64,000 nucleotides of DNA from positions 96,001-160,000 of the forward strand of contig CAWDDT010000010.1 of the NCBI GenBank assembly GCA_963801165.1. The letters run 5' to 3'. The position numbers and the translations under genes were made by a program. Shown here piece by piece: positions 6,165-59,069 of this stretch. The stretch comes from an uncultured bacterium (GTDB taxonomy: Bacteria; Actinomycetota; Acidimicrobiia; Spongiisociales; UBA5794). The notes under the pieces are model-generated. The model was not told the DNA's origin and did not search any database. It saw only the letters and a list, made by a program, of their open reading frames with translations. Numbering within the stretch: the first letter of the stretch is position 1; every line of letters begins with the position of its first letter.

Positions 6165-9151
6165 GCGAAACCCGGTCCGCCCTCGGCCCACGCCGGGCAT
6201 ACCTGGCGAAGCGAGCAACGTTCACAGTGGGTGCCCGGTTTCGGTGTCCAATCCTCGGATCGGATGCCTTCGGCGGCCAGCTGCAGGCGAGCTTCGACAT
6301 GGCTGAGAAGACCCATGTCGAACTTGCGTGTGGTGACACCCCTGGTCCCGTGCATCGGGTACCAGAGCTCGGCCCCGACTACCGGCCCGTGTGCATCGAG
6401 ATCCGAGTCGCGGTCGACGGCAAGCGCATAGAAGCCAAGCTGCAGGGATTCAGCGGCTTCTGCGATCTGAACGGGGTGCTTGCTGGTCTTGTAGTCGACA
6501 ATGGTCAAACCACCTGGTCCGCTGTCGATTCGGTCGATGCGACCGGTCCATTTGATGCCACCGACCTCGGCCTCGACGGTTCGCTCGAGGTCGAGGGCGC
6601 GACGCTTCCTGGTGGGCCAATTCTCGTAGAGACGGATCAACCCGTCGTGACCACGGTTCAGCCAGGAGTCGGCAAACGGACGGCCCCCGTAGTCGTTGGG
6701 GTCGAATCGCTCCCCGAGCTCGGTGAGAGCCGCGTCCAGCGTGCTGTGCTCTCGCCCCTGGTCGCGGGCGGTGCGTTCCACCGTCTCGAGAACATCGTGG
6801 ATCAGCGTACCGAAGTCAGCGTGGAGCGACGTGTCGGATCCGACTTTGAGACGGCGCTCGAGGGCATACCGTCGCGGGCAGTCCTCATACATTTGTGCCT
6901 GCGAGGGGGAGAGCACCACCTGGTCACCAATCAGGCCGTCGTCGGGTCCCCGGTCCCGGACACCGTTGAAGTCGGCAGCGGGGCGCAGCCCCCACTCCTC
7001 GCCGATGGCGAGGACTCGAAGGGCGGCGAGACGTGCCGGTCGCGGCGCAGCCACATCGACCAGGCAGCGACGCAGCGCGGCTTCGGCTTCGTGAGCCGTG
7101 ACAGGGAGCCGGCCACCCTCCGCGGGATGCGTTGGAGGGCACACGCTCACCCGGCCGGGTGGTCGGCCCGCATCGACCCCCACCCGGGCGGCGATTGTGG
7201 TGAAGAAGCGGCTGGGGCGGCCGGGTGCCTCGTCGAGACCACGTGCGGTGGCGGTCCAGATGACCCGGCGTCGGGCGCGGGTCATCGCCGTGTACGCCAA
7301 CCGGCTCTCCTCGCGAAGCCGGAAAGTCCGGTACTCCGCGGTATCAGCGGGGACGTGGGGCAACAGGTGTCGTACGCCGAGCAGCGAGTCCCGCGTACGG
7401 AGATCGGGAAATACCCCGTCAACTGCGTCGGCGATGAAGACCACGTCGAGTTCCAGCCCTTTTGCCTGGTGAAGAGTGGTCAGCGTGAGATAGTCGCCCT
7501 CCGGTCGGCGGTAGCTGAGCAGCGGCTGGGCTTCGAAATCCTCGCTCTCGGCGAGGCGGCGGTACTCGAGAAGTGTTCCCTGTGGATTGCGCTCCTCCCA
7601 GCGAACGAGCACCTGGGCCAACGATCGCCACGCCGCTCGCTCCTCAGCAGCCGCGGGGTCGGCAATGAGGCTCTCGACGCCGGGCAGAGTGCTCCACAGT
7701 TGCCACAGTCCATCGACGGCGGGAACGCTGGTGGCCCACCCGGGATCCTCGAGGAGGTCGGCGAGCCGGGACCACCCGGGGAGGGTCTCCCGGATCGCAC
7801 GAGACCAGGATGCGCTGACCCTGGCCTCCCGCTCCAGCGATCGAAACGCGCCGATTGTCAACCCGACTCGCGATCCGAGAAGCACCCGCCGCATTGCATT
7901 CTCCGCGGCGGTCGGCCCGTCGCATCCCGAAGCCGCGACGGCGAGGTCGAGTAGGAAGCGGACTGCGGGCTGGTCGGTGAGCCGGCTACCCGGTAGCTCG
8001 TGCGGTATGTGGCGGCGCTCCAACGCCCGGGAGAGGTCGGCAAGGAGCCGGCGTTTGCTGCGGACGAACACGCCGATTCGGCGGTAGGGGATACCTTCTG
8101 TGAGGTGGAGCCGTTGCGCCTCGGCCGATATCCATTCCGCTTCCTCGACTTGCTGGTCGAACCGGTACGCATCCACGACTCCCCGACCGGGGGCCGGGTG
8201 CACGGTTCCGGTCGCACCGGGAAGATCGCCGGTGGTCACTGCCACTGCCGCATCGAGGATGGCGGCCGGTGTGCGAAACGAGGTCGTCAGCAAGAAGCGG
8301 ATGGCGGGGGTTTCGGACGAGCCGAAATCATCCTCGAACGCGGCGACGTTCTCGACCGTGGCGCCCCGAAAGCTGTATATCGATTGGTAGGGGTCGGCGG
8401 CGGCGAGCGTGTGGCTGCCACCGCGTTGGAGTGCCTGCAGCAGCCGGACCTGGGCCGTCGTCGTGTCCTGGTATTCGTCAACCAGCACGTAGGTCTCAGT
8501 GTGCGCCGCAGCGAGGACGCCCTCTTCGAGCAGCGCGACGGCAGTGGAGATGAGAGTGCCGTAGTCGATGCGCCCCAGCTTGCGCAGCGCCCGTTGGTAT
8601 GTCGCGAGAAACTCCGGCAAACCGCGCCAATCGGCGCGCTCGAAACGGGCGATGGACTCGGGTGTGTTCATCTGCTCGGCTGAGCGCAAAATGAAGTCGG
8701 TCACCTCACCGGCAAAAGTCCGTGTGCCGAGAAGCTCGGCGAAGGCAGGGGACCAGGCGCGGCGGTCATCTTCTACCAGCAGTTCGTGCATCAGCGACAC
8801 CTGCTCGGGACCGGTGAGTATCTGCGGGTTCTCGCCCCATCCAGCGGCGACGCTGTTGATCTCGACCAGACGCGCAGCATAGGAGTGGAAGGTGGCGACA
8901 TCGAGAGCGCCGAGCGTATGGGTGATGCTCTGTCGAATCCGGCTGCGAACCTCGGCAACGCCGCGTCGGGAGAACCCGAGGACGGTGATCTGCTCAGGTC
9001 GTACCCCGGCAGCCGTGAGCAGATGGGTGGCCCGGCGGACCAGAAACTCCGTCTTTCCGGTCCCCGGACCGCCGACTACGAGCTGTGGGCCTGCGATGTG
9101 GGCCACGGCCTCCGGCCAGCCGTCGGGGTCGATCGAGATGGGGTCGTTCAC
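6161..9151 (-). CDS. UvrD-like helicase with C-terminal RecB-type nuclease (AdnA-like)
   Basis: GGPGTGKT, VDEYQD, TLHQAKGLE, YTAMTRAR, RIDRID...VDYKT, CPRR...CERCSLRQVC; GTGA overlap at 9148-9151. Confidence 0.87.
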   Translation of the reverse strand: MNDPISIDPDGWPEAVAHIAGPQLVVGGPGTGKTEFLVRRATHLLTAAGVRPEQITVLGFSRRGVAEVRSRIRQSITHTLGALDVATFHSYAARLVEINSVAAGWGENPQILTGPEQVSLMHELLVEDDRRAWSPAFAELLGTRTFAGEVTDFILRSAEQMNTPESIARFERADWRGLPEFLATYQRALRKLGRIDYGTLISTAVALLEEGVLAAAHTETYVLVDEYQDTTTAQVRLLQALQRGGSHTLAAADPYQSIYSFRGATVENVAAFEDDFGSSETPAIRFLLTTSFRTPAAILDAAVAVTTGDLPGATGTVHPAPGRGVVDAYRFDQQVEEAEWISAEAQRLHLTEGIPYRRIGVFVRSKRRLLADLSRALERRHIPHELPGSRLTDQPAVRFLLDLAVAASGCDGPTAAENAMRRVLLGSRVGLTIGAFRSLEREARVSASWSRAIRETLPGWSRLADLLEDPGWATSVPAVDGLWQLWSTLPGVESLIADPAAAEERAAWRSLAQVLVRWEERNPQGTLLEYRRLAESEDFEAQPLLSYRRPEGDYLTLTTLHQAKGLELDVVFIADAVDGVFPDLRTRDSLLGVRHLLPHVPADTAEYRTFRLREESRLAYTAMTRARRRVIWTATARGLDEAPGRPSRFFTTIAARVGVDAGRPPGRVSVCPPTHPAEGGRLPVTAHEAEAALRRCLVDVAAPRPARLAALRVLAIGEEWGLRPAADFNGVRDRGPDDGLIGDQVVLSPSQAQMYEDCPRRYALERRLKVGSDTSLHADFGTLIHDVLETVERTARDQGREHSTLDAALTELGERFDPNDYGGRPFADSWLNRGHDGLIRLYENWPTRKRRALDLERTVEAEVGGIKWTGRIDRIDSGPGGLTIVDYKTSKHPVQIAEAAESLQLGFYALAVDRDSDLDAHGPVVGAELWYPMHGTRGVTTRKFDMGLLSHVEARLQLAAEGIRSEDWTPKPGTHCERCSLRQVCPAWAEGGPGFA

Positions 9152-9966
9152 GACGTCGCGGGTTGGCCCGGATCGGTTGCAAAAGCCGGGCACCGATCCT
9201 GGAACTGGCACCAGTTGCACAGCTTGCCCGGTCTTGCGGGGAAGTCGTTGTTGATGATGGCCCGGTTTATGGCCGCCCAGAGTGCCTCGAGCTTGCGCCG
9301 GGTTGCGTCGAGTTGCTGGTCGCTAACCGGGATCTCGTACACCGTGGGCCGGCCCAGGTACATGAGCCGCAAACGTACCGGGGTGCGCCCGGTGCGCGCC
9401 CTGATGAGCAGCGCGTAGATCTTCAATGCGAAGAAGGCGGGAATGGCGTACCGCTCGGGTGGGGCCGAGCCGGTCTTGTAATCGGTGATGACCAGACCGT
9501 CCGGTTCCTCTTCCATCCGATCGAGAATGCCGCGGATGGTTATCTCGCCGAGCTCCTCGGTCATGTCGAGCTCCCGATCGACCGGATCAAACGAGGTTGG
9601 ATCCTCGATCACGAAGTAGTTGGCGAGCACCGACAGACTATCGATGCCCCAGGCTCGCTCCTCCTCGACGGTGTCGAAGAGACCGGGGAACTCCTCGTCG
9701 CGCAGCTCGACCCATGCCTTGCGAAACAGCTCGTAGAGCGTTTCCGGGGTGCGGTTCTTCGGGGCGAGATCGAACAGCCGCTGCAGGGCGAGGTGAGCGG
9801 TCGTACCCCGGGCCTGATACACGGTGGGGGGCACCTCGATCTTGTCGATTGCCTTGTACTTGAACAGAAGCGGGCACACTTTGAAGTCCCCGGCCCGCGA
9901 GGGAGACAGCGTTTCGAGGATCGGAGCCGCAATTGTCTGTGTCGTGGTGTGATTTGTAGCTGTCAT
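9148..9966 (-). CDS. Stand-alone RecB-family PD-(D/E)XK nuclease with 4-Cys (Fe-S) motif
   Basis: LSPSRAGDFKVCPLLF, GILDRME, ITDYKTG, LKIYAL, LCNWCQFQDRC; start at MTATNH, preceded by TATAGT. Confidence 0.85.
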   Translation of the reverse strand: MTATNHTTTQTIAAPILETLSPSRAGDFKVCPLLFKYKAIDKIEVPPTVYQARGTTAHLALQRLFDLAPKNRTPETLYELFRKAWVELRDEEFPGLFDTVEEERAWGIDSLSVLANYFVIEDPTSFDPVDRELDMTEELGEITIRGILDRMEEEPDGLVITDYKTGSAPPERYAIPAFFALKIYALLIRARTGRTPVRLRLMYLGRPTVYEIPVSDQQLDATRRKLEALWAAINRAIINNDFPARPGKLCNWCQFQDRCPAFATDPGQPATS

Positions 9967-10044
9967 CGCCTTTCGACTATACGCCGCGCCACCGACAAGA
10001 ACCACACGCGTGTAGTTATCGCGTGTAGTTATCGACAGGGAGAT

Positions 10045-10119
10045 CGCGAAATATTTGCCGAATTCGCGAAAACGAACCAGCCATCCAACTTGACTGCACA
10101 AAGCGGTCGGGCGTACGTT
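10045..10119 (+). promoter_or_regulatory. SigA-type promoter with upstream CGCGAAA direct repeats (drives RNA-1)
   Basis: CGCGAAA at 10045 and 10065; TTGACT 10090-10095; 18-nt spacer; TACGTT 10114-10119. Confidence 0.7.
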
Positions 10120-10124
10120 ATCGG

Positions 10125-10876
10125 TCCTCGAGGCTCCGACCATGGCGGAGTGGTTCTCGGAAGGAAAGGGATTGGGAAACCGGCCCTCTCCGGCACCGGG
10201 AACAACGGGATGGATACATCCCGAAGGGCACCCGGTCCCCCGGCGGAACTCCGGTTCCGGCGGAACCGAGGGTCCACGTCCGAGAGGCTTCGGCCTCGAA
10301 GACAACAGGTTGAACGGGTTTCGGCCCGGGAAACCGACAGGGCTCCGGCTCTGTCACCCGCCCTGCTACGGCAGAGCAAACCGGGAGGGCTTCGGCCCGA
10401 CCAGAAGGCCTCGGAGGGTGAAATCCTCCGAAGCAACGGGCGGCCTTCGGGCCACCCGGTCCTCCGAGTGAGGCGCACCGCCGCTGCGGTTGGGACTACG
10501 GTCTCACCACAGCGGGCAGACGTAACACGAAGGTGGACGAAACGCCGAGGCAATCGGCGGGACGAGGGTTTCCTCGGTGAGGGCAACGCCCGATCCGAGA
10601 AGGCTGCCGGGTCAAACCGAGCGGCAAGCCCTCCGACCAAGGGTTGCAGCGGTTTCCCCTGGTGGGAGCTTCGGCGCCCGCTAGCGGAGACGGCACGGCC
10701 GGCTGTACCGGGCTTCGGTCCGGTGACGACCGGGCGGGCCGGTGGGTGTCCTAACGGCCATCTACAAAGCAGCGGCTGGAAGCGGCCCGACTCCTCACGG
10801 AGAAGGTGCCCGACCAGAAGCGAGGATCCCCGAGAGGGTGGCGACTCCGGTCAAAACTCCCTCGGGGTTTCCTTTT
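10125..10876 (+). ncRNA. Putative large (~750 nt) highly structured non-coding RNA, family unassigned (RNA-1)
   Basis: No credible CDS. About 11 UNCG-capped hairpins plus GAAA/GATA/GGCAA loops and a GGGTGAAATCC T-loop-like hairpin. Long-range helices 10226-10232/10805-10811 and 10462-10473/10793-10802. Promoter upstream; hairpin plus U-tract downstream. Confidence 0.8.
10823..10876 (+). terminator. 3' terminal hairpin / intrinsic terminator of RNA-1
   Basis: CCCCGAGAGGGT...ACTCCCTCGGGG stem followed by TTTCCTTTT. Confidence 0.7.
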
Positions 10877-11000
10877 GTCACGAGGTTTGTCACGAGGTTT
10901 GTCACGAGGTTTGTCACGAGGTTTGTCACGAGGTTTGTCGCGAGGTTTGTCGCGAGGTTGTCGCGAGGGTTGCCGCGGAGGTTGCCGCGGAGGGTTGTCG
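10874..11000. repeat. 12-bp tandem repeat TTTGTCACGAGG, 5 perfect copies then progressively degenerate
   Basis: Perfect units at 10874, 10886, 10898, 10910 and 10922; variants TTTGTCGCGAGG x2, then TTGCCGCGGAGG-type units. Confidence 0.9.
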
Positions 11001-11022
11001 AGAGGGCTCGAAGCCTGTCGTT

Positions 11023-11679
11023 TCAGGTACACCCATCGAGCGGCTGGAGCAGCGTCACGGTGTCGTTGTCGTCCGACCCGCTCAGCAGACCCCGGAAGCC
11101 GGCAGAGACGGCCCGAAACGACCACACATCGAGTACCGCGTCTCCCTCGACCACCATATCGGCGCCGAATGCACTGCGGAGCGCGGCGACGGTCGTTCCG
11201 AGCCCAACGCCCTGTTCGGTCGTCAGGTCTAGACCACGCGGATCGATGCCGCCCTCGTTCTCGGAGAAGTCGTAACCGTAGGTATACGTGTAGAAGTATC
11301 CACCGAGGTCGGGAGCGCCGTCGTCGATGAAGATGGTCACGAGGCTACCCCAGCCGATGGCCCGCATCGTCGAGCCGGGGCACGAGCCATAGGCGTTCGG
11401 CTCCGACGGTATCCAGCCGCTATCCAGATCGGGGCCACCGACGAGTGCGGCGATGTCGTCCACGACCGTGTCAGGAGCGAGCCCGAAGCTCACCTCGCCG
11501 AGACCGTCGGGGGAGAGGGCTAGCTTCACCAGCGGGGCCGGGACCGTCGTTGTCGAATCCTGCGCGGCTCCGCATCCAGTGAGAAGGACGCACATGAGCA
11601 TCGCCGCGACTCGACGTCCCGCCGCCGGTCGAGCCCGGGCTGCCCGGGTGCACCCGACGATCCGCTTCTCTCGAGCCAA
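11023..11679 (-). CDS. Putative lipoprotein of unknown function
   Basis: TTG start 6 nt after GGAGG; basic N-region, hydrophobic stretch, lipobox LTG-C, Thr-rich linker. Confidence 0.75.
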   Translation of the reverse strand: MAREKRIVGCTRAARARPAAGRRVAAMLMCVLLTGCGAAQDSTTTVPAPLVKLALSPDGLGEVSFGLAPDTVVDDIAALVGGPDLDSGWIPSEPNAYGSCPGSTMRAIGWGSLVTIFIDDGAPDLGGYFYTYTYGYDFSENEGGIDPRGLDLTTEQGVGLGTTVAALRSAFGADMVVEGDAVLDVWSFRAVSAGFRGLLSGSDDNDTVTLLQPLDGCT

Positions 11680-11765
11680 CTAGTACCTCCGGCGAGGACA
11701 CTACACCGGGACCCGGAAGGTCCCCTGCGCACGGGCTCTGGGCCGGATCGGGACCCCGGGGCACA

Positions 11766-11804
11766 TGAGTTCGGTGAGTGAATTCGGCGAGTGAGTTCGG
11801 CGAG
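11766..11804. repeat. 13-bp tandem repeat TGAGTTCGGCGAG x3 (imperfect)
   Basis: Units at 11766, 11779 and 11792. Confidence 0.7.
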
Positions 11805-11870
11805 TGATAAGGAGGATTCGGTCGACTATTCGCGCCTGATCCGGGTATCGGAGCGGCGCCACGATCGGGT

Positions 11871-11945
11871 CGCGAAACAAAGCGGGAAAGCGCGAAATCA
11901 AGACACGGTTTTGGCTTGACCGCGGCATGGGCTACGCACTAACTT
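11871..11945 (+). promoter_or_regulatory. SigA-type promoter with upstream CGCGAAA direct repeats (drives RNA-2)
   Basis: CGCGAAA at 11871 and 11891; TTGACC 11916-11921; 18-nt spacer; TAACTT 11940-11945. Confidence 0.7.
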
Positions 11946-11951
11946 GGCTTT

Positions 11952-12220
11952 AGTCGATGAGGCGGGAAACCGCAGCAGAGACTCCAGGCCTCGCAAGGGG
12001 TTCTGGGATCTGGACGAGTCACCGGGCCGCGAGGTCGGGTGGCGACACCGCAAGGAAAGTCCGGGGACGAGCCCCAGTGGTTCGGCCTCACGGGCTGCGA
12101 AGGATCGCTGATCGGGACTTCGGTCCTGAGAGGCATCTCGGTTGAGCCGCAAGGTTCCGACCGAGAAGAGAGCCCCGAGAGGGTCGACGCTTCGGCGAGA
12201 ACTTTCTCGGGGTTTCTCGC
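11952..12220 (+). ncRNA. Putative ~270-nt structured non-coding RNA, family unassigned (RNA-2)
   Basis: Series of hairpins: GCGG-GAAA-CCGC, C-GCAA-G, GGCC-GCGA-GGTC, CC-GCAA-GG, TCGGGAC-TTCG-GTCCTGA, GAGCC-GCAA-GGTTC, CGC-TTCG-GCG; own promoter; 3' hairpin near-identical to RNA-1. Confidence 0.72.
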
Positions 12221-12336
12221 GTCCGTAGTGGGCCGGACGACCAAAAACGCCGGCATCTGGCTCAAGGAATCGAGCGATCCGAAAATCTGCAAGCGGTGAT
12301 TGCGCGCGGCCAGGTCGAACGTCGTATCATTGCGCC

Positions 12337-12969
12337 ATGGCTTTTCCAGAGAACATCCTCACGGAAGATGAGACGATCGTCAGTCAGTTTCGACCGCACT
12401 GGAGGATGCTCGCCATCCCTGTGCTGTGGTTTATCGCCGGCATTGTTGCCATAGTCCTCGTGTCGGTCTATTCCTGGCTCGACGACTATTCGATCATCCG
12501 CTGGATCCTGATCGCAGCGCTAGTGCTTGCTTTGTTCCCGCTGGTGGTAAGCCCCGTTCTCCGGTGGGTGTTCACGTCCTACGTTCTCACCAGCGAGCGG
12601 CTGATGACGAGGACCGGGATGATCGCTCGCAGCGGCATCGAGTTGCCGCTGGCCAGCATCAACGACGTGCGCTTTCACCAGACGGTTCTCGAGCGTGTGC
12701 TGAAGTCGGGCGACCTCGTAATCGAGTCGGCAGGTGAGAGCGGGCAGAGCAGGTTCACCGATATCCCGCGCCCTGAGGAGTTCCAATCGCTGCTGTACCG
12801 GACCCGGGAACAGCAGCAACACAACAGCGCCGTAGAGCAGTCGGCAAAGGCCGCCGAAGTGACCCGCGACCCAACCGAGGAGTTGGAGAGAGCTGCCCGA
12901 CTACGCGATGACGGGGTGCTCTCTGAGGAGGAGTTCCAAGCCATGAAGCAGCGCATCCTCGGGACGTAG
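12337..12969 (+). CDS. Membrane protein with bacterial PH domain and C-terminal SHOCT domain
   Basis: RPHWRML, two TM helices, YVLTSERL...GDLVIESAGE, C-terminal LRDDGVLSEEEFQAMKQRIL. Confidence 0.85.
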   Translation: MAFPENILTEDETIVSQFRPHWRMLAIPVLWFIAGIVAIVLVSVYSWLDDYSIIRWILIAALVLALFPLVVSPVLRWVFTSYVLTSERLMTRTGMIARSGIELPLASINDVRFHQTVLERVLKSGDLVIESAGESGQSRFTDIPRPEEFQSLLYRTREQQQHNSAVEQSAKAAEVTRDPTEELERAARLRDDGVLSEEEFQAMKQRILGT

Positions 12970-13128
12970 CGCTGCCGAGCCCAAACCGGGTTCGGGCTAT
13001 TCGTGGTCACCCGCAACCTGTACATTGTCTCCAGGAGACTGCGGAGCACATGTCGTGGCCGCGTGCCGCGCCATCGCCGCGCGTGACCAGAACCGGCATC
13101 GCTCAGCAGACCAATAGGAGGACGATGC

Positions 13129-13593
13129 ATGTCTGCTGAAAAGCTTCGTGAGTACCTCCTGACCCGCGGTGTGCCCTACGAGGTGCACGAGCACCCTCTC
13201 GCCTTCACGACGTCCCGCGTCGCGGAAGTCGAGCACATTCCCGGCAAGGACATTGCCAAGCCGGTCATCCTCATGGCCGACGACCACTTCGTGATGGCAG
13301 TTGTCCCGGGCCACAAGCACGTCGATCTCAACAAGGCGAGGTCTGCCCTCGGCTGTGAGAGCGTGCGGCTGGCAGAGGAATCAGAGTTCGCCGCTGCGTT
13401 CGCCGACTGCGAGCGCGGTGCCGAGCCACCGCTCGGGCATCTCTACGGCATGGAGACCGTCGTTGATCTGCGTCTCGATGCACCAAGGATCACGTTCCGT
13501 GGTGGGAGCCACACCCAGACGATCACGATGGGGATGGAGGACTACAGGACGGCCGCAAACGCCGTCATGGGTGACGTCGCGGCCGGTCGCTGA
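13129..13593 (+). CDS. YbaK/EbsC-family aminoacyl-tRNA deacylase
   Basis: IAKPVIL, LAEESEFAAAFADCERGAEPPLG, GGSHTQTI; GGAGG RBS. Confidence 0.85.
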   Translation: MSAEKLREYLLTRGVPYEVHEHPLAFTTSRVAEVEHIPGKDIAKPVILMADDHFVMAVVPGHKHVDLNKARSALGCESVRLAEESEFAAAFADCERGAEPPLGHLYGMETVVDLRLDAPRITFRGGSHTQTITMGMEDYRTAANAVMGDVAAGR

Positions 13594-23694: not shown

Positions 23695-24197
23695 GGGACC
23701 AGCCGTTCGAGTTCCACCTCGGCGATCTACGCTCCGGCAGGTCCGCACCACGCACGCTCAGTGGCCGGGTTGCCGTCGACTGGCGTGTCGAGCTGTCACG
23801 GGTCCTCACCGAACCGCCTTTATTCTTCGAGCTCGAGGTGGCGCAGGTCCCCGGTGGCATGTCTGTGTCCGGCGTCATCGAGGCGGCGCTGGCGCATAGC
23901 TGCTACCGCTGCCTCACTGAATGGACCGAAGAGGTCGTCCGCGATGTTGCCCAGATGCTGGTCAGCGGGGGCGATGAGGACGACGACTACCGGATCACAA
24001 GTGACACATACGACTTCGAGGATATGATCCGTGACGAGTTGATGTTGTCGCTTCCAATCGCCCCACTATGCGGTCCCGATTGTGAGGGACTTGTTGTGGA
24101 GGCGGGAAGCGACTTGAATACGAATCTCTCCGAAGACGAGGCTGTTTCCGGCTCGCCCTTTTCGGTTCTCAAAGATCTATTGGATAGTGGGGAATGA
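23691..24197 (+). CDS. yceD: YceD/DUF177 family protein
   Basis: CYRCL, LPIAPLCGPDCEGL, PFSVLKDL; upstream of rpmF. Confidence 0.85.
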   Translation: MRDQPFEFHLGDLRSGRSAPRTLSGRVAVDWRVELSRVLTEPPLFFELEVAQVPGGMSVSGVIEAALAHSCYRCLTEWTEEVVRDVAQMLVSGGDEDDDYRITSDTYDFEDMIRDELMLSLPIAPLCGPDCEGLVVEAGSDLNTNLSEDEAVSGSPFSVLKDLLDSGE

Positions 24198-24218
24198 TCC
24201 CCGAAGGACGAGGCTCCC

Positions 24219-24392
24219 ATGGCGGTCCCAAAGAAGAAGATGTCGCGCTCCCGTACCCGGCGGCGTAAGGCCGAATGGAAGGTGACTGCGCCCGCCACCG
24301 TCGCATGTCAGCGGTGTGGCTCACAGCACCTTCCGCACCGGGTGTGCCCTAACTGCGGCACCTACGATGGGCGCGAGGTAATCGAGACCTAG
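24219..24392 (+). CDS. rpmF: 50S ribosomal protein L32 (57 aa; not in ORF track)
   Basis: Hand translation MAVPKKKMSRSRTRRRKAEWKVTAPATVACQRCGSQHLPHRVCPNCGTYDGREVIET. Confidence 0.96.
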   Translation: MAVPKKKMSRSRTRRRKAEWKVTAPATVACQRCGSQHLPHRVCPNCGTYDGREVIET

Positions 24393-24408
24393 ACAGGACG
24401 CAGATACC

Positions 24409-25392
24409 GTGGCCACCATCGCTATCGATGCCATGGGCGGCGACAACGCCCCCGAGGAGATCGTCCACGGTGGTGTCGATGCGTCGGCTCGCGGTCATGA
24501 CGTTGTGCTCGTCGGCGACCGTGCCCGGATCGAGCCGATTCTGACCGCGGCGGGCGCGGACATTCGCATCGTTCACGCCAGCGAGATGATCGAGATGTCG
24601 GACGATCCCGCGGTGGCGATCCGGGAGAAACGCGACGCATCGATTTCGGTCTCGGCCCGGCTCGTCAAGACGGGTGAAGTCGACGGTCTGGTCTCGGCAG
24701 GCTCGACCGGGGCCGCGCTCGCAGCGGCAACTTTCATGATCGGGAGGCTCCCGGGTGTCTCCCGTCCCGCAATTGCCTCGTATTTCCCGTCCGGCTCCGT
24801 CGTCATCGACATGGGCGCCAACCTCTCGGTGCGACCCACCGATCTCGTTCAGTTTGCGGTGATGGGCGCCGCGCTCGCCCGGGCTCACTACGGCGTTGCC
24901 GAGCCGACCGTAGGTCTGCTCAATATCGGTTCCGAGGCCGGCAAAGGGCGAGTCCTCGAGAAGGACGCGTACGTCTTGCTCGAGAAATTCCCGGGTCTGG
25001 ACTTCATCGGCAACGTAGAGGGGACAGATCTGGCCAAGGCCAGATGCAACGTGATCGTCTGCGACGGCTACACGGGTAACGTCCTGCTGAAGACCGCCGA
25101 AGGCGTCGCCCGTATGGTTCTCGCGCTGGTCCTCGAGGCCGTGTCCGGTCCCGAGTACGCCGAGGCCGTACAGACCCTCGCTCCGGCCGTGTTCGGGTTA
25201 CGCGAGCGACTGAACCCCGAGAGACACGGCGGCGCACATCTGCTCGGTGTCAAGGGTGTCGTGGTGATCACGCACGGCTCTTCGACACGGGTGTCGATCA
25301 CCCATGCGGTCGATACCGCGGTGGAAGCAGCCGAGGGCAAGGTACCGGATATGATCGCTGCCGACCTGGCCGCCGGCCGGGGCTCGCAGTGA
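24409..25392 (+). CDS. plsX: Phosphate acyltransferase PlsX
   Basis: IAIDAMGGDNAP, SAGSTGA, GLLNIGSE, GNVEG, HGSS. Confidence 0.95.
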   Translation: MATIAIDAMGGDNAPEEIVHGGVDASARGHDVVLVGDRARIEPILTAAGADIRIVHASEMIEMSDDPAVAIREKRDASISVSARLVKTGEVDGLVSAGSTGAALAAATFMIGRLPGVSRPAIASYFPSGSVVIDMGANLSVRPTDLVQFAVMGAALARAHYGVAEPTVGLLNIGSEAGKGRVLEKDAYVLLEKFPGLDFIGNVEGTDLAKARCNVIVCDGYTGNVLLKTAEGVARMVLALVLEAVSGPEYAEAVQTLAPAVFGLRERLNPERHGGAHLLGVKGVVVITHGSSTRVSITHAVDTAVEAAEGKVPDMIAADLAAGRGSQ

Positions 25393-44540: not shown

Positions 44541-45458
44541 CTATTGCTGGGGTGGTTCGGCCGGATTTGAAGAGGTGGCGTCGATGGCGACGGTCACCGC
44601 CTCCTCAGCGTCACCATCGGGCGTGACGACGAGATCGAGCGGGACGGCCGGGACGTCGTGGAAGGTCGTCGCAAACTCGCGCCACAGCCCGTTGCCCGGC
44701 AGCGGCGATGCCGTCCCCGTGGCTGCGACGTTCTGGTCCCCCCGGCCGATGAGATCGACGGTCACGGTCTGATACGACCCCTTGACGTATCCGGAGACTA
44801 GAAGCGGGCTGTCCACCGGTCCCGCCGGCGGGCTCACCACAACTACCGTCGCGCCTGTGGCGGCCCCGAGCACCGGCTGTGCGTCCGGCTGTTCCATGAC
44901 GTCGATCACGATCCGGCTGGGAGAGTCGACCTCGTAGGCGCGTAAGGCATACGACCGACCCGCGGCGAGGTGCATGTCGATGGCGAGATTGGTCGCGGTG
45001 GCCACTACGTAAGCGCGTTTCACCAGGTTGCCATCGAGCAACGAATCGGCAACAGCGGAGCGGTTGATGTCGGCGGGCAGGCTCACCCGGACAACACCGG
45101 TAGGGGCGTCATACTCGACGCCGACGGGGTCGAGCCGGCCCGCCGGAGCCCCATCTGCCGTCAGGAAATCCACCATCACCTGCTCGCACCCCGGATAGCT
45201 CGTCCAGCGGATTCCGGAGATCTGTGTGGCGTCACCATCCGCACCACCAAAGGCGGATATCAGCCCGTCGCGGGCGAACGGCCGGTTGCCGGTCGAACAA
45301 GGCGAGTCCCCCGGGAGTGTGGTCGCAGGAGCTGTAGTCGCGATTCCGGTCCCTGCGGCCTCAGTGGTAGTCGTGGTCGTTGTAGACGACTCGGGTTCCA
45401 GATACGAGCAACCGGCGATGAGGCCAACGAGGGCGACGAGAAGCAGGTGACGGAACAT
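44541..45458 (-). CDS. Putative lipoprotein (AMIN-like domain)
   Basis: Lipobox IAG-C, Thr-rich linker, PSRIVIDV. Confidence 0.7.
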   Translation of the reverse strand: MFRHLLLVALVGLIAGCSYLEPESSTTTTTTTEAAGTGIATTAPATTLPGDSPCSTGNRPFARDGLISAFGGADGDATQISGIRWTSYPGCEQVMVDFLTADGAPAGRLDPVGVEYDAPTGVVRVSLPADINRSAVADSLLDGNLVKRAYVVATATNLAIDMHLAAGRSYALRAYEVDSPSRIVIDVMEQPDAQPVLGAATGATVVVVSPPAGPVDSPLLVSGYVKGSYQTVTVDLIGRGDQNVAATGTASPLPGNGLWREFATTFHDVPAVPLDLVVTPDGDAEEAVTVAIDATSSNPAEPPQQ

Positions 45459-45581
45459 CGCAGCGAGCTTACCGAGCTGGGCGTTTTGGGGGGCCGACGG
45501 CCGGCGATTCGCTAATTCCAGCCGTGCAGCAGCCGACCGGGGGGAGTGGTACGGGTGTACCAGTGACGCCGACTAGGGGCC

Positions 45582-47426
45582 ATGATGAGAAAACTGCTCA
45601 ACTGGAAGAAGACGATCTCGTTCAAGATGTGGATCTCGCCTGTGATCGCCATGGTGGTGATCGCGGGAATCATCGCGATTGCGGTGCAGCACCAGCACAC
45701 CCTGGTGCAGGTCAACCTCGAGTCCAAGACGAGAGAACACGTCGAGACCGCCATGAGCGTGGTCGAGGCGGCGTATGCGTCCGAGCAGAGTGGGGAGAAG
45801 ACCCGCGAAGAGGCGCAAGCAGACGCGCTCAGCACGATCGCCGCTATGCGCTACGACGGGTCTCAGTACTTCTGGATCAACGACCACACCCCGACGGTCA
45901 TCATGCATCCGATCAAGCCAGAGCTGGACGGCACCGACGTCTCCGGCATGGAAGACAGCAACGGCGTGAAGATCTTCGTCGAATTCACGAAGACCGTTGA
46001 AGCCAATGGCGCCGGATTCGTATCCTACCTCTGGCCAAAGCCCGGTCAGGATGCGCCCGAAGCGAAGATCTCGTACGTTGCCGGCTTCGAACCGTGGGGC
46101 TGGATCATCGGCACCGGGATCTACGAGAGCGACGTTGCCGGGTTGGTCTCGGAGGAAGTGAACTCCGGGACGACAGTCCTGCTGCTGATGGCTCTCGGCG
46201 CTCTTCTTCTCATTGCACCCGTCACGTGGTGGATCAGCCGCCGCATTTCGCGGTCGCTCAAGGCGATGTCGCAGACCGCCGAGCAACTGGCGACGACCGA
46301 CCTGGTCGAGCTGCGCGATGCCGCCGACGCCATCGCCGGCGGTGACCTGACCCGGTCCGTCACCGTAAACGCAGCGCGCCTCGACGTGCGCTCAGATGAC
46401 GAGATCGGCGCAACCCAGCGATCTTTCAACGACATGCTCGACCGCATCACCGAAGCGGGCGGAGCGATGGATCGGATGACCAAGTCGCTGCGCGACCTCG
46501 TAAGGAGCGTCAGTGCGATCGCCAGCGAGGTCGACGCCGGATCCGAAGGGCTGGCGAGCGCCTCCGATGAGGGTGCCAGGGCAGCGGCGGGGGTGGCAAC
46601 CTCCATCACCGATGTGGCGACTGCGGCGTCAAGCAACGCCGATACCAGTCGTGAGGTCGACAACGCAGTCCGCACCATCACCGAAGAGCTCGCGTCCGCG
46701 CTGCCGGCTATCTCGGCTGTTTCCGAAGCGTCCCAGAAGGCCGAGCTGCGCACCGCCGAGGGGGAGCAGCGGGTGGCTGAGGCTGTGAGCACAATGGACA
46801 CGATCGCCGACTCGATCACCAGGATCTCGGACCGTGTGCTCGAAATGGGGGCCCATTCCCAGAAGGTAGAGCAGATCGTCGATGTGATTCGCGCGATTGC
46901 CGAGCAGACCAATCTCCTTGCCCTGAACGCCGCCATTGAGGCTGCGCGGGCAGGTGAGCATGGGCGCGGGTTCTCGGTTGTGGCCAGCGAGGTCAAGACG
47001 CTGGCTGAGGAGTCGGCCGCTTCGACCGACCAGATCGCCGACATCGTCCTTCAGATAAAGACCCTCCTCGACGGGCTCGTCCAGGAGATGAGCTCCGGCC
47101 GGGAAGGAGTATCCGCCGGTGCCGAGGTCGTCGCGTCGGCCGGTGCGGCGTTCTCGTCGATCGCCGAGTCGGTACGAGAGATCTCTGCGCGCGTAGCAGC
47201 GGTCGACAACTCGGCGAAGGGGATACAGCTCGCAACCGAGATGATTGGTGAGCGGGCGGGCTCGCTTGTCGGGCTCGCCGACGAGACATCCACTTCCTCG
47301 GAGATGGTGGCGGCCGCGGCCGAGGAATCGGCGGCCACGTCTCAGGAGATCGGCGCCACGGCCGAGGTGCTCTCGACGGCAGCAGCCCGGTTGCAGGACA
47401 GCCTCACCCGGTTCCGCGTCGACTGA
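45582..47426 (+). CDS. Methyl-accepting chemotaxis protein with Cache sensor and HAMP domains
   Basis: YFWIND...HPIKPELDG...YLWPKPG...[43 protein letters not shown]. Confidence 0.93.
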
Positions 47427-52241: not shown

Positions 52242-53018
52242 CTACCCCGCTCGGTGCCGCTCGATCAGTGCCTCGCGTAGTTGCTCGAAGTCGGTGTCGT
52301 TGAGTGCGACGGGGGAAAGGGAACCACCTGTTGCGTTTCCGGGAACCCAGATGACCACAAGGTCACCGCTCACAACCGGGGGCTCTCCAACGCTCCAACC
52401 GCAAAGCCGTATAACGTGTGCGCCCTTGTCCATGCCGATTGCAGCGATAGAGGTCGCGTTGTCTGTTCCTGGAAAAGTAGTCCACAATTGTTGGCCGGTT
52501 CCCGGTGTGTCGCATGGATCGCTGTCGAAGCTGAGCCAGACAAGACCGTCTGCGTAGTCAGTCAATGTGGGCGAAGCGAATGACACCGACCCGGTCGCCT
52601 GGATCGCACCATCACCGGGTGCCGACAGATTCAGCGTTGCCAGAGTGACAGTGGCGCCGTCTGGAATGGTGTCGGCGCCGGCGTACGCGTGGTAGACGGT
52701 CGCTTGAGCGCCTGTGGCCATCAGGTCGTCGGCGCTGAGCCCTCCGACGGTCGCAGCATCGACCACTCGGGCCGTTGCGAGTCGATGGAGGAACGCAGCC
52801 ATTTGCCCTCGTGTAACCGGTTCTCCTGGGCAAAACTGATCGTTTGCTGGCGGATTGCAGCCCCGGGTGACACCAGAATCGGCCAGCCAGGCGACGTCAT
52901 CGTAAAAGACATTCTCCGATGGGACATCAGTGAAGCGGTCGATAGCGGCAGCACCGATTGGCACCAGGAGCACCACAAGGAGACCACCCACCAAAAGGGA
53001 CATTGCTCGTCTGAACAT
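52242..53018 (-). CDS. Secreted S-layer-homology (SLH) domain protein
   Basis: Signal peptide; FTDVP...WLADSGVTRGCNPPANDQFCPGEPVTRGQMAAFLHR. Confidence 0.8.
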   Translation of the reverse strand: MFRRAMSLLVGGLLVVLLVPIGAAAIDRFTDVPSENVFYDDVAWLADSGVTRGCNPPANDQFCPGEPVTRGQMAAFLHRLATARVVDAATVGGLSADDLMATGAQATVYHAYAGADTIPDGATVTLATLNLSAPGDGAIQATGSVSFASPTLTDYADGLVWLSFDSDPCDTPGTGQQLWTTFPGTDNATSIAAIGMDKGAHVIRLCGWSVGEPPVVSGDLVVIWVPGNATGGSLSPVALNDTDFEQLREALIERHRAG

Positions 53019-53326
53019 GACACCTTCCATTCGTACAATCCGCCGTGCGACGGGGCGCTGATACCACTCTCCCTTAGCTCGCACCACCGCTGACATCACC
53101 CGCCAGCCGAGTCGAGCCCAAATCCAGAGAACATAATATGGGCGATATCGCACCTTGGCGCCAACCCCGCAGAGCGGCACGTATCCGCATGGGGGATCGG
53201 CCACTCAGCGTAACGAAGGCGGATAGACGAAACTGTTGTGTTTCGCCCATCTGATGCGGGGACTCTCTTTGGGCTGCCGCGCGCGGTGAGCCGCCACCTG
53301 GCGTGTAGGTCACTCGATCTCGGCGA

Positions 53327-53680
53327 CTACTCGCGGCTTTGGCACCATGCGGCGACGATAGCGAGAAGTTCCGCCCTGGCGGACTTGACGTCCTCGATGT
53401 CGGCGAACTTCACGTAGCGGGCTGTATCGCCGCCGCCTTTCATCCGTGGGTGCGTGCCCGGGATGGCGGCACCGCTATGGAACATGAGGCTTACGTGGGC
53501 CTTGGCTCGCGGATTGATGCTCGCCATGTTGCCTTTGTACATGAACGTCGGGCTCTTCCATTTGATTGTCTCGGTCATTCGATCGTCCGAGAGCACGATC
53601 TGGCGCACCAGCTGCATCGCATCGAGCAGCGGATGCTCGAAATCTTCAAACCAAGCATCGACATCTGGGTTTGTATTCAC
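53327..53680 (-). CDS. DUF1801 (YdhG-like) protein
   Basis: ETIKWKSPTF, LMFHSGA, AW near the C-terminus. Confidence 0.82.
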   Translation of the reverse strand: MNTNPDVDAWFEDFEHPLLDAMQLVRQIVLSDDRMTETIKWKSPTFMYKGNMASINPRAKAHVSLMFHSGAAIPGTHPRMKGGGDTARYVKFADIEDVKSARAELLAIVAAWCQSRE

Positions 53681-57911: not shown

Positions 57912-58115
57912 GTACGCACCGGATCGTCGCATCTCCTTGAACCAGCAGCCACGATGCCAGTGCCGACGTCTATCCGGGTCGTACTCGGGAACCACCACCA
58001 GGTGTCCTTCGCCGGCGCCGATGTCACCGTTGCAACCGGGGCAGGCGTATTTCTTGCGCGCCTGGTAGGGCTGGATCGGGGTCACGACTAGCGGACCGAA
58101 TGGCGAATCCTCCAC
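57894..58115 (-). CDS. Small conserved actinobacterial-type Zn-finger-like protein
   Basis: KKYACPGC...HLVV...RRHWHRGCW. Confidence 0.7.
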   Translation of the reverse strand: MEDSPFGPLVVTPIQPYQARKKYACPGCNGDIGAGEGHLVVVPEYDPDRRRHWHRGCWFKEMRRSGAYSVESR

Positions 58116-58116
58116 G

Positions 58117-58230
58117 TCAACCGCCCACCAAGGCCCAGATGACGACGAGCACGATGATGATGAGAAAGATGGCGACAATGATGACATCGGTTGCCGTCTT
58201 CTCTTGCTGGCGGAATGGATTGAAGCCCAC
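58117..58230 (-). CDS. 37-aa single-pass membrane microprotein (not in ORF track)
   Basis: Hand translation MGFNPFRQQEKTATDVIIVAIFLIIIVLVVIWALVGG; TACCCT 7 nt upstream of GTG; stop lies 1 nt before the next GTG. Confidence 0.7.
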   Translation of the reverse strand: MGFNPFRQQEKTATDVIIVAIFLIIIVLVVIWALVGG

Positions 58231-58280
58231 GACGCCGAGGGTAGTGCGCGCCGGGGGATGCGAACTGTATTGTCACATCG

Positions 58281-59069
58281 ATGACTGACACGCCATTTGT
58301 CCTCGTCACCGACACGGGCCCGGTGCGCTGGATCACTCTCAATCGACCCGATCGCAAGAACGCGGTCCCGCTGGAGGGATGGGCAGAGCTTGCCGGCGCT
58401 TTCGATGATTTCGCAGGTTCGGTCCAGCGTGTCGTCGTGCTCCGTGGTGCCGGAGAGGACTTCTGTGCCGGCGCCGATCTCCATTTCGACACCGTGGACG
58501 AGTTGCGCAGCCCTGCGGTGGGTCGCGCCTACATGCGGGCACCGGGGCGGGCGGTCACCGCTCTGTACCGGTTGGCGAAGCCATCGCTGGCCGCCGTTGA
58601 CGGGGTAGCGGCCGGGGGTGGGATGAATCTCGCCCTTGGTTGCGACATCGTGGTCGCCACCGAGCAGGCACGGTTCTCGGAGATCTTCGTCAAGCGAGGT
58701 CTGACCGTCGACCTCGGTGGCACCTGGCTGCTGCCTCGCATCGTGGGGATGGCCCGGGCACGAGAGCTGGCGCTGACCGGTCGCACCGTTGCCGCCACCG
58801 AGGCGCTGGAGATCGGGATGGTGAGCCGGGTAGTGCCCGTCGGCGAGCTCGTCGCGGTGGTGCAGCAGCTCGCGGAGGAGATCGCGGAGGGGGCCCCGCT
58901 GGCGCAGAGCTTCATCAAGAAGGCCCTGTCCCGCTCGATGGAGATGACCTTCGAGCAGGCCCTCGCCTCCGAGGCGCAGGCGCAGGCGGCGCTGCTCGCC
59001 TCCGACGACGTACGGGAAGGGGTGGCTGCGTTCCTCGAGCGCAGGGACCCGCGTTTCGAGGGGAAGTAG
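58281..59069 (+). CDS. Enoyl-CoA hydratase/isomerase family protein
   Basis: ITLNRPDRKNA, FCAGAD, AAGGG, EGVAAFLERR. Confidence 0.92.
   Translation: MTDTPFVLVTDTGPVRWITLNRPDRKNAVPLEGWAELAGAFDDFAGSVQRVVVLRGAGEDFCAGADLHFDTVDELRSPAVGRAYMRAPGRAVTALYRLAKPSLAAVDGVAAGGGMNLALGCDIVVATEQARFSEIFVKRGLTVDLGGTWLLPRIVGMARARELALTGRTVAATEALEIGMVSRVVPVGELVAVVQQLAEEIAEGAPLAQSFIKKALSRSMEMTFEQALASEAQAQAALLASDDVREGVAAFLERRDPRFEGK

Follow-up and report, generated by a model that had tools for sequence, protein, structure and literature searches.

What fills an apparent intergenic gap in the genome of an uncultured member of the Acidimicrobiia, where almost the whole sequence folds and no credible protein was noticed? 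The gap lies in the 64,000-nucleotide (nt) stretch of DNA analysed here (the window), part of a genome of 4.55 Mb that is 98% complete. A preliminary description had proposed a large non-coding RNA at this place, RNA-1, and suggested that it may be an undescribed large RNA class or a distant relative of GOLLD and ROOL. We found that RNA-1 is almost certainly a genuine, stand-alone non-coding RNA of ~750 nt encoded on the + strand, and our comparisons indicate that it is an outsized member of a so far undescribed family of RNA genes which is almost confined to one order of the Acidimicrobiia. The gene consists of the following elements:

10045 to 10071, + strand: upstream double box CGCGAAA-N13-CGCGAAA, which ends 18 nt before the -35 element; presumed activator site
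10090 to 10119, + strand: promoter TTGACT-N18-TACGTT, conserved in the genus, with the same architecture before other family members
10125 to 10876, + strand: RNA-1 transcript, ~750 nt, indicated by folding, absent codon bias, homologues, covariation and RNA contigs

The 5' end of RNA-1 is placed, by inference, at about 10125 (+/-3), and its 3' end falls within the U-rich run past the terminator stem. The minimum free energy of 10125-10876 is -415.5 kcal/mol on the + strand (z -7.70, with none of 20 dinucleotide shuffles as good) and -375.9 on the reverse strand (z -4.19). C(UNCG)G loops occur 12 times on the + strand versus twice on the - strand, the background in the rest of the window being about 1.3 per 752 nt on either strand, and no other stretch of the window has at least five of them per 400 nt on either strand. 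Codon positions show no GC bias between 9901 and 10981 and a strong one in the genes on either side. Long mechanical open reading frames (ORFs) span the region, such as one of 715 amino acids (aa) at 9085-11232 (+), and a 109-aa ORF begins at a conserved ATG of RNA-1. The frame of this ATG varies from 31 to 227 aa across 14 homologues and is shifted by indels, and therefore no protein is conserved. The sequence of RNA-1 is single-copy in its own genome. These results bear out much of the preliminary description: all 14 hairpin strings that it quoted could be located on the + strand, within 10206-10852, the stretch is non-coding, and RNA-1 is a stand-alone structured RNA with its own promoter upstream (TTGACT-N18-TACGTT) and, downstream, the announced hairpin and U-tract, a terminator-like hairpin with a T run at 10854-10870 and beyond.

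RNA-1 is also present in environmental RNA. Among the matches listed, 13 of the 20 runs with RNA-1 sequence are salt-marsh metatranscriptomes, each with its own study code, which contain 64-83% of the sampled words. We compared three RNA runs (X4, X5 and X9) and one DNA run over positions 8500-13500. Each RNA run gave a contig covering most of RNA-1:

10137 to 10831: contig of run X4, word depth 177, 1 differing letter
10143 to 10831: contig of run X5, word depth 72, 1 differing letter
10146 to 10831: contig of run X9, word depth 415, 1 differing letter

The depth in these three runs is 0 in all bins of 8500-10002 and 10838-12006, which hold the flanking genes; in the DNA run, 29 of 30 bins have cover, at a depth of about 5. 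The contrast between RNA-1 and its flanks is strong evidence for a discrete, abundant transcript. The letters ahead of the X4 and X5 contigs are presumably sequencing adapter, so that these fragments start 12-18 nt past the predicted start of RNA-1. We read the common stop of the contigs at 10831 as an assembly effect and not as a 3' end, because it coincides with the start of the module that related RNAs share, from where the sequence is identical to theirs. A smaller sibling, RNA-2 (see below), appears in the RNA runs only as short pieces at 12059-12168 with 2-4 differing letters, which come from relatives.

Matches to RNA-1 were found in all 14 other genomes of the genus. The body of the RNA is matched in 13 of them, with BLAST identities of 68-77% over the alignable parts, and the remaining genome (G010, 82% complete) matches only the last 43 nt, which belong to the 3' module described below. 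We aligned the 14 RNA-1 sequences of the genus (alignment A1; lengths 656-859 nt), for which RNAalifold predicted a consensus of 191 pairs in 35 helices. Standard pairs fill 96.0% of 2515 cells, versus 89.2±0.3% in shuffles and 34-53% in slid controls. Pairs changed on both sides number 78 of the 191, versus 41.0±4.0 in shuffles, which related sequences may beat without any structure (0 of 500 shuffles reach 78), and versus 20-25 in slid controls, which keep the relatedness and thus answer this caveat. Many pairs pass through G-U, and all 14 sequences have two unchanged G-U pairs in common; because such pairs are A/C mismatches on the other strand, they fix the + strand as the one that folds. 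Within the genus ~430 nt are well conserved (100 nt at the 5' side and 330 nt at the 3' side), with many invariant unpaired blocks.

The fold of RNA-1 is a string of about 30 mostly local hairpins kept by compensatory change, not a compact ornate fold. Its parts are, from 5' to 3':

10125 to 10150, + strand: 5' terminal hairpin of the UCCUC...GAGGA type, with an invariant CCAUGG and the palindrome CCUCGAGG; helix 1
10153 to 10203, + strand: long hairpin with an invariant GAAA loop (..CGGGAAACCG..); helices 3-5, 4 pairs with double changes
10206 to 10223, + strand: hairpin with a GNRA-type loop; helix 6, 4 of 6 pairs doubly changed, 100% of cells paired
10224 to 10435, + strand: hypervariable array of short hairpins capped by UUCG, UCCG or UACG; A1 columns about 130-498, helices 7-14
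10436 to 10819, + strand: genus-conserved 3' domain, ~380 nt, with about 12 helices (15-33) and invariant single-stranded blocks
10820 to 10876, + strand: family 3' module, an extended terminator stem; model R1 match 68.5 bits; helices 34-35

Helix 1 is paired in 98% of cells with zero double changes, and two alternative pairings suit different genomes. Its palindrome CCAUGG is invariant in all 14 sequences, and CCUCGAGG becomes CCUUAAGG in one genome and CCUUGAGG in two. The loop of the hairpin at 10206-10223 is GAUA here and GAGA, GUGA, GCGA, GAAA or GCAA in homologues. Double changes are frequent in helices 7-14, and species differ in which hairpins of this ~210-nt array they have; over the 14 single-sequence folds, 102 hairpins have a UUCG loop. 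The CGGAGG-GTGAAAT-CCTCCG element that had been called T-loop-like belongs to this hypervariable part and is absent, or has another loop, in most homologues; it is not conserved, and the T-loop reading is unsupported. The only long-range helix that we found is short, lies within the 3' domain and consists of invariant columns, and a search for further covarying long-range or pseudoknot helices, for which 14 sequences give little power, returned only promiscuous G/U-rich matches.

The 3' module forms a stem, GAGGA-U-CCCCGAG-A-GGGU ... ACUC-C-CUCGGGG-UU-UCCUU, around a small covarying UNCG hairpin. It includes an A/C mismatch and a purine-rich internal loop, and all three pairs of the inner hairpin are doubly changed. 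RNA-1 matches the exact pattern of the module (CCCCGAGAGGG, small hairpin, YYCUCGGGG) and its extended stem.

The genome has one further copy of the final 50 nt of RNA-1, situated 1.3 kb downstream at the end of a second RNA, and the exact 3' module is found twice only in the 4.55 Mb. The second RNA is:

11871 to 12221, + strand: RNA-2, the smaller sibling, with a double box at 11871-11897, a promoter TTGACC-N18-TAACTT at 11916-11945 and a transcript at about 11951-12221

RNA-2 is ~270 nt long (fold z -4.89), ends in the family 3' module (R1 match 71.7 bits) and has orthologues at loci L037 and L016. It stops 116 nt before a bPH_2/SHOCT gene on the same strand and might act both as a leader and as a small RNA (sRNA).

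Scanning one genome per species, we found the module in at least 117 stretches. Among the 80 matches listed, 67 are labelled Acidimicrobiia or Actinomycetota; several of the others carry the same neighbouring genes and are therefore probably mislabelled bins. The exact module is present in 66 of 76 genomes of the order (the count of one family includes an unpublished genome) versus one of 224 genomes of the class's other orders, where it has a different form. A covariance model built on 68 modules (R1) matched 43 of 44 genomes of the order versus three of 105 from the other orders, all three weakly. There are 145 modules in 117 loci, and 34 locus strands have at least two modules, 245-2815 nt apart. 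A genome has 1-6 family genes of 150-860 nt, usually in tandem between a PD-(D/E)XK nuclease gene and a bPH_2 gene, with predicted lengths of about 150 nt (n=27) or 185-360 nt (n=20), plus larger forms.

Family members share a GNRA-capped 5' hairpin. It corresponds to the hairpin at 10153-10203, which is also found in the 150-nt and 230-350-nt classes of the family and which RNA-1 carries behind its extra 5' hairpin; the 150-nt class has in addition a conserved 10-nt loop (..GGCCCGCUUU..). The start of RNA-1, YCCUCRA followed by a hairpin, opens large RNAs of other genera too, and those found beside the nuclease gene measure 574, 502, 498, 497, 537 and 671 nt. Past the two ends, the large RNAs of different genera showed no core in common, and their bodies could be aligned neither with that of RNA-1 nor among themselves; outside the genus the 3' domain is unrecognisable save for its last 50-160 nt. 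Tandem duplications of hairpins were seen in the RNAs of L138 (54 nt x3.2 with 98% matches, L138:5816-5989) and G009 (19 nt x1.9). As judged from these sequences, bodies of the RNA-1 type evolve as UNCG-capped hairpins are gained, lost or duplicated in tandem. The coordinates L008:2039-2075 mark a 19 nt x1.9 duplication of a hairpin unit inside a large family RNA.

RNA-1 has the 3' module, the double box with its promoter, and the position between the nuclease and bPH_2 genes, and we consider it very probable that it belongs to this family. The class proposed in the preliminary description is indeed undescribed, but it is not a one-off large class: RNA-1 is an enlarged member of a family whose RNAs mostly have 150-350 nt.

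The family also shares its upstream region. Both boxes are kept in 14 of 14 RNA-1 promoters of the genus. Promoters of the form TTGAC(G/C/T)-N17-19-TA...T were predicted upstream of the modules of 61 genes in other genomes, and CGCGAAA-N13/14-CGCGAAA stands at 54 of these 61. Among those listed, the double box ends exactly 18 nt before the -35 element in 43 of 45 cases, and this fixed distance suggests one shared activator. Only five double boxes exist in the own genome, two of which are those of RNA-1 and RNA-2. A third, on contig C9 (about 406036-406950), is followed after 18 nt by TTGCGA-N17-TAGGGT; a codon-biased ORF of ~268 aa from near 406135 may be a protein-coding member of the regulon, or be there by chance.

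The genes around the two RNAs are:

9148 to 9966, - strand: PD-(D/E)XK nuclease gene, divergent from RNA-1 (PF12705, E 6e-34)
11023 to 11679, - strand: 218-aa ORF with a lipoprotein-like N-terminus (..LLTGCGA..), convergent with RNA-1; no Pfam or NCBIfam match
12337 to 12969, + strand: bPH_2/SHOCT gene (Pfam)

With the proteins of the window as queries, tblastn located the nuclease gene at 88 of 144 loci and the bPH_2/SHOCT gene at 70, which places the RNA arrays in one conserved gap. The nuclease gene as such occurs throughout the class (87 of 91 genomes). In 20 genomes from 19 families of other orders, inspected by eye and by composition, no comparable arrangement of promoter, RNA and module was seen beside it, and the gap is short. 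A weak R1 match in another order (G045:C77:46806-46866, E 8.7e-6) shares its strand with the nuclease gene, whose start is 25 nt away, an arrangement unlike that in the order of the window. Relatives of the 218-aa ORF were found at 23 of the 144 loci, several of them directly downstream of large family RNAs. The other neighbours have housekeeping roles (adnAB-like helicase-nucleases, tRNA editing and deacylase proteins, a methyltransferase, Ddl and a GAF histidine kinase), and we found no functional hint in the neighbour genes of RNA-1.

RNA-1 matches no RNA family in Rfam. The whole window gave no match to Rfam 15 at gathering scores, and the best match in 9900-11100 at E<=10 was dauA, with 22.4 bits versus a gathering score of 45 (E 0.7). 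No match was obtained in 18 related loci (132 kb), or at E<=0.5 in 4 more. The Rfam families covered include GOLLD, ROOL, OLE, HEARO, raiA, 6S, transfer-messenger RNA, RNase P and group I and group II introns; the preliminary description had likewise seen no signature of transfer-messenger RNA, RNase P or these introns. A literature search at the level of listings and abstracts found no description of an Acidimicrobiia RNA of this kind, though the supplementary tables of the Ms1 survey might cover Acidimicrobiia.

What could such an RNA do? Our best explanation, which we rate as a whole at slightly below an even chance, is that RNA-1 is an enlarged family RNA which is co-activated, long-lived and acts in trans on a protein partner. 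One dedicated activator would switch on all family genes via the fixed double box. Capped ends and hyperstable UNCG loops would make RNA-1 long-lived, and its 3' module, together with the genus-conserved 5' and 3' domains, would form the platform by which a protein partner recognises it. RNA-1 would then act in trans by binding or sequestering this partner, the expandable array setting capacity or spacing. The 3' module is probably a protein-binding site, because its arms are sequence-invariant across the order and its inner hairpin merely covaries, which goes beyond the needs of termination. That RNA-1 as a whole is a trans-acting protein-binding or sequestering RNA is a reading we hold tentatively, as possible rather than probable.

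Several observations weigh against this explanation. The body that cannot be aligned between genera could equally mean that most of it is dispensable, and helix 1 and the few long-range pairs consist of invariant columns, to which no covariation test can be applied. The contigs from environmental RNA cannot give the strand, the ends or the true abundance of the RNA. A strict sigma-70 scan called no promoter at RNA-1, because the -10 element is TACGTT, which agrees with TATAAT at 3 of 6 positions, and what is known of the activator is a conserved DNA motif. Neither Hfq nor ProQ was found in the own genome. GGA occurs 21 times in RNA-1 versus 25±3 expected, with no short motif enriched, and CsrA (PF02599) is encoded in 7 of 44 genomes of the order versus 34 of 105 elsewhere, while the RNA module is present in 43 of the 44.

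The last two points concern a close parallel in design. The Csr/Rsm sRNAs (CsrB, RsmX/Y/Z) are paralogues with a variable number of hairpins, a shared activator site, a strong promoter, an intrinsic terminator and high abundance. The RNA-1 family likewise comprises differently sized paralogues under one upstream site, a likeness of design and not of membership: RNA-1 shows no enrichment of GGA, no looped GGA and no sequence or model similarity to these RNAs, and the loops of RNA-1-type hairpins are UUCG, GAAA, UCCG and similar. GGA counts in the 14 homologues are 20-36 per RNA versus shuffled means of 20-32; AGGA and AAGG are likewise unenriched, and GAAG is weakly enriched in some homologues and not in others. 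With GGA unenriched in 14 of 14 and CsrA in so few genomes of the order, we find no support for a CsrA sponge and see no link to CsrA. Of 150 Acidimicrobiia genomes sampled across the class, 42 encode CsrA, with a patchy distribution among families. The own genome has a CsrA homologue (C11:429832-429987, 92.9 bits).

Instead of binding a protein, RNA-1 might regulate by base pairing, or as a sponge, its unpaired segments pairing with mRNAs or sibling RNAs and the rest stabilising the molecule. Sets of sibling sRNAs under one regulator, such as Qrr, consist of RNAs of about 100 nt with a shared seed and a chaperone. The family has the look of such a set, with tandem or clustered paralogues, a common regulator site, and common terminal structures in the form of protective 5' and 3' hairpins, and the loop of the 150-nt class (..GGCCCGCUUU..), as we read the sequences, is suited to purine-rich ribosome-binding sites. 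RNA-1, however, has 750 nt and is nearly fully paired, with about 96% of consensus pairs formed and little left single-stranded, and no chaperone of a known kind was found, Hfq and ProQ being those missing from the own genome. The predicted duplex of RNA-1 with RNA-2 has -203 kcal/mol versus -195±7 for shuffled RNA-2 and so gives no signal, although for two long GC-rich RNAs an unconstrained duplex fold is a poor test. We regard base pairing as unlikely. Less likely still, in our judgement, is an ornate RNA with tertiary or quaternary architecture in the manner of GOLLD, ROOL and OLE, which reportedly form RNA-only multimers (PMC12286853). RNA-1 is like these in its size class (600-900 nt), its many stable tetraloops, its unknown function and its stand-alone gene; its GNRA loops are kept as a type and not as a sequence, and the palindromes CCAUGG (invariant) and CCUCGAGG/CCUUAAGG/CCUUGAGG could mediate self-association. 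Yet the large RNAs of other genera have not retained these palindromes. RNA-1 further differs in having no Rfam match, a beads-on-a-string fold without supported multi-way junctions or pseudoknots (the extra covarying helices being only the promiscuous G/U-rich ones), and a fast turnover of its body, a third of which is gained and lost within the genus. It is chromosomal and syntenic, not associated with phages or mobile elements, and comes from a different phylum. The suggestion of a distant GOLLD/ROOL-like member is accordingly not supported: the models gave no match at E<=10, no well-supported long-range helices or junctions were found, the central third is variable even inside the genus, and bodies from different genera do not align.

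One particular form of protein binding would be that of an RNA which binds RNA polymerase and takes the place of 6S or Ms1. Actinobacteria reportedly rely on Ms1 instead of 6S (PMC9130861), and RNA-1 resembles both as an abundant, stable, structured RNA in an actinobacterial lineage without detectable 6S: the 6S model (RF00013) gave no match in the genome at E<=1, with a control matching 5 of 14 known genomes. For RNA-1 itself 6S is not supported, with no model match and with 5' and 3' ends that are not paired to one another in the consensus, from which an end-to-end rod with a central bubble is missing. The family has multi-copy genes of very different sizes. Ms1, which we could compare by its description only, is located in that survey by its synteny, its gene lying between those of a HAD hydrolase and an oxidoreductase (PMC9130861); RNA-1 is flanked by PD-(D/E)XK nuclease and lipoprotein-like genes, and its synteny thus differs from the one described for Ms1. 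We give the polymerase-binding role a small probability. A comparably small one goes to a largely non-functional expansion, in which the small family RNA is the functional unit and the long body of RNA-1 is tolerated duplication. The gain, loss and recent tandem duplication of hairpins and the lack of conservation of the body between genera fit such an expansion, but ~430 nt are well conserved within the genus and 78 pairs are doubly changed, which argues for selection on the body of RNA-1. It is very improbable that RNA-1 is a protein-coding gene or a leader that regulates in cis, such as a riboswitch or an attenuator. The last RNA of an array (RNA-2 here) does end 40-120 nt before a same-strand bPH_2 gene, and a 109-aa ORF starts at the conserved ATG. 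RNA-1, though, has its own terminator and is followed by the convergent gene at 11023-11679 (-), with no same-strand gene next to it to regulate, and the ORF has no codon bias and is frame-shifted among homologues (31-227 aa). Both readings are contradicted for RNA-1, and we return to an enlarged family RNA acting in trans on a protein partner as the explanation that we prefer.

The main new result is the RNA family with its regulatory architecture, beyond RNA-1 alone; a link to GOLLD or ROOL is unsupported. To our knowledge, few bacterial RNAs of the size of RNA-1 lack a known function, and almost none of these come from Actinomycetota. The Acidimicrobiia are a common and poorly studied class of soil, sediment and marine bacteria. 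We suggest, with somewhat less than even confidence, an RNA system new to one of their orders, with 1-6 tandem genes under one activator site and products from 150-nt sRNAs to hairpin arrays of ~860 nt, whose large members would be a new sequestering or scaffold class with a partner and a regulator new to bacteria. As the own genome yielded neither Hfq nor ProQ and CsrA is patchy, the family may point to an unknown mode of RNA-based regulation. The activator site at a fixed distance, the invariant 3' module and the natural size variants from 150 to 860 nt are handles for experiments, and what the family RNAs bind, what signal induces them and how a small RNA becomes a large one are testable questions.

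Elsewhere in the window, codon-position GC bias is also absent from 721-1501, 24061-24541, 45121-45601, 52261-52801, 52981-53461 and 57961-58441; these six stretches have neither a high UNCG density nor an Rfam match. Some repeats lie close to RNA-1. A 13-nt direct repeat (x2.2, 10007-10034) occupies part of the divergent promoter region of the nuclease gene (gap 9967-10044), and the place matching this gap reads TTATCCACA, which we take to be DnaA-box-like, in 8 of 14 genus sequences. On the other side, a 12-nt tandem repeat of the TTTGTCACGAGG type (11 copies, 91-96% matches, 10874-11005) starts from within the U-run of the RNA-1 terminator. The downstream flanks of RNA-1 differ in the 13 other genus sequences, and at locus L130 a different microsatellite follows a family terminator.

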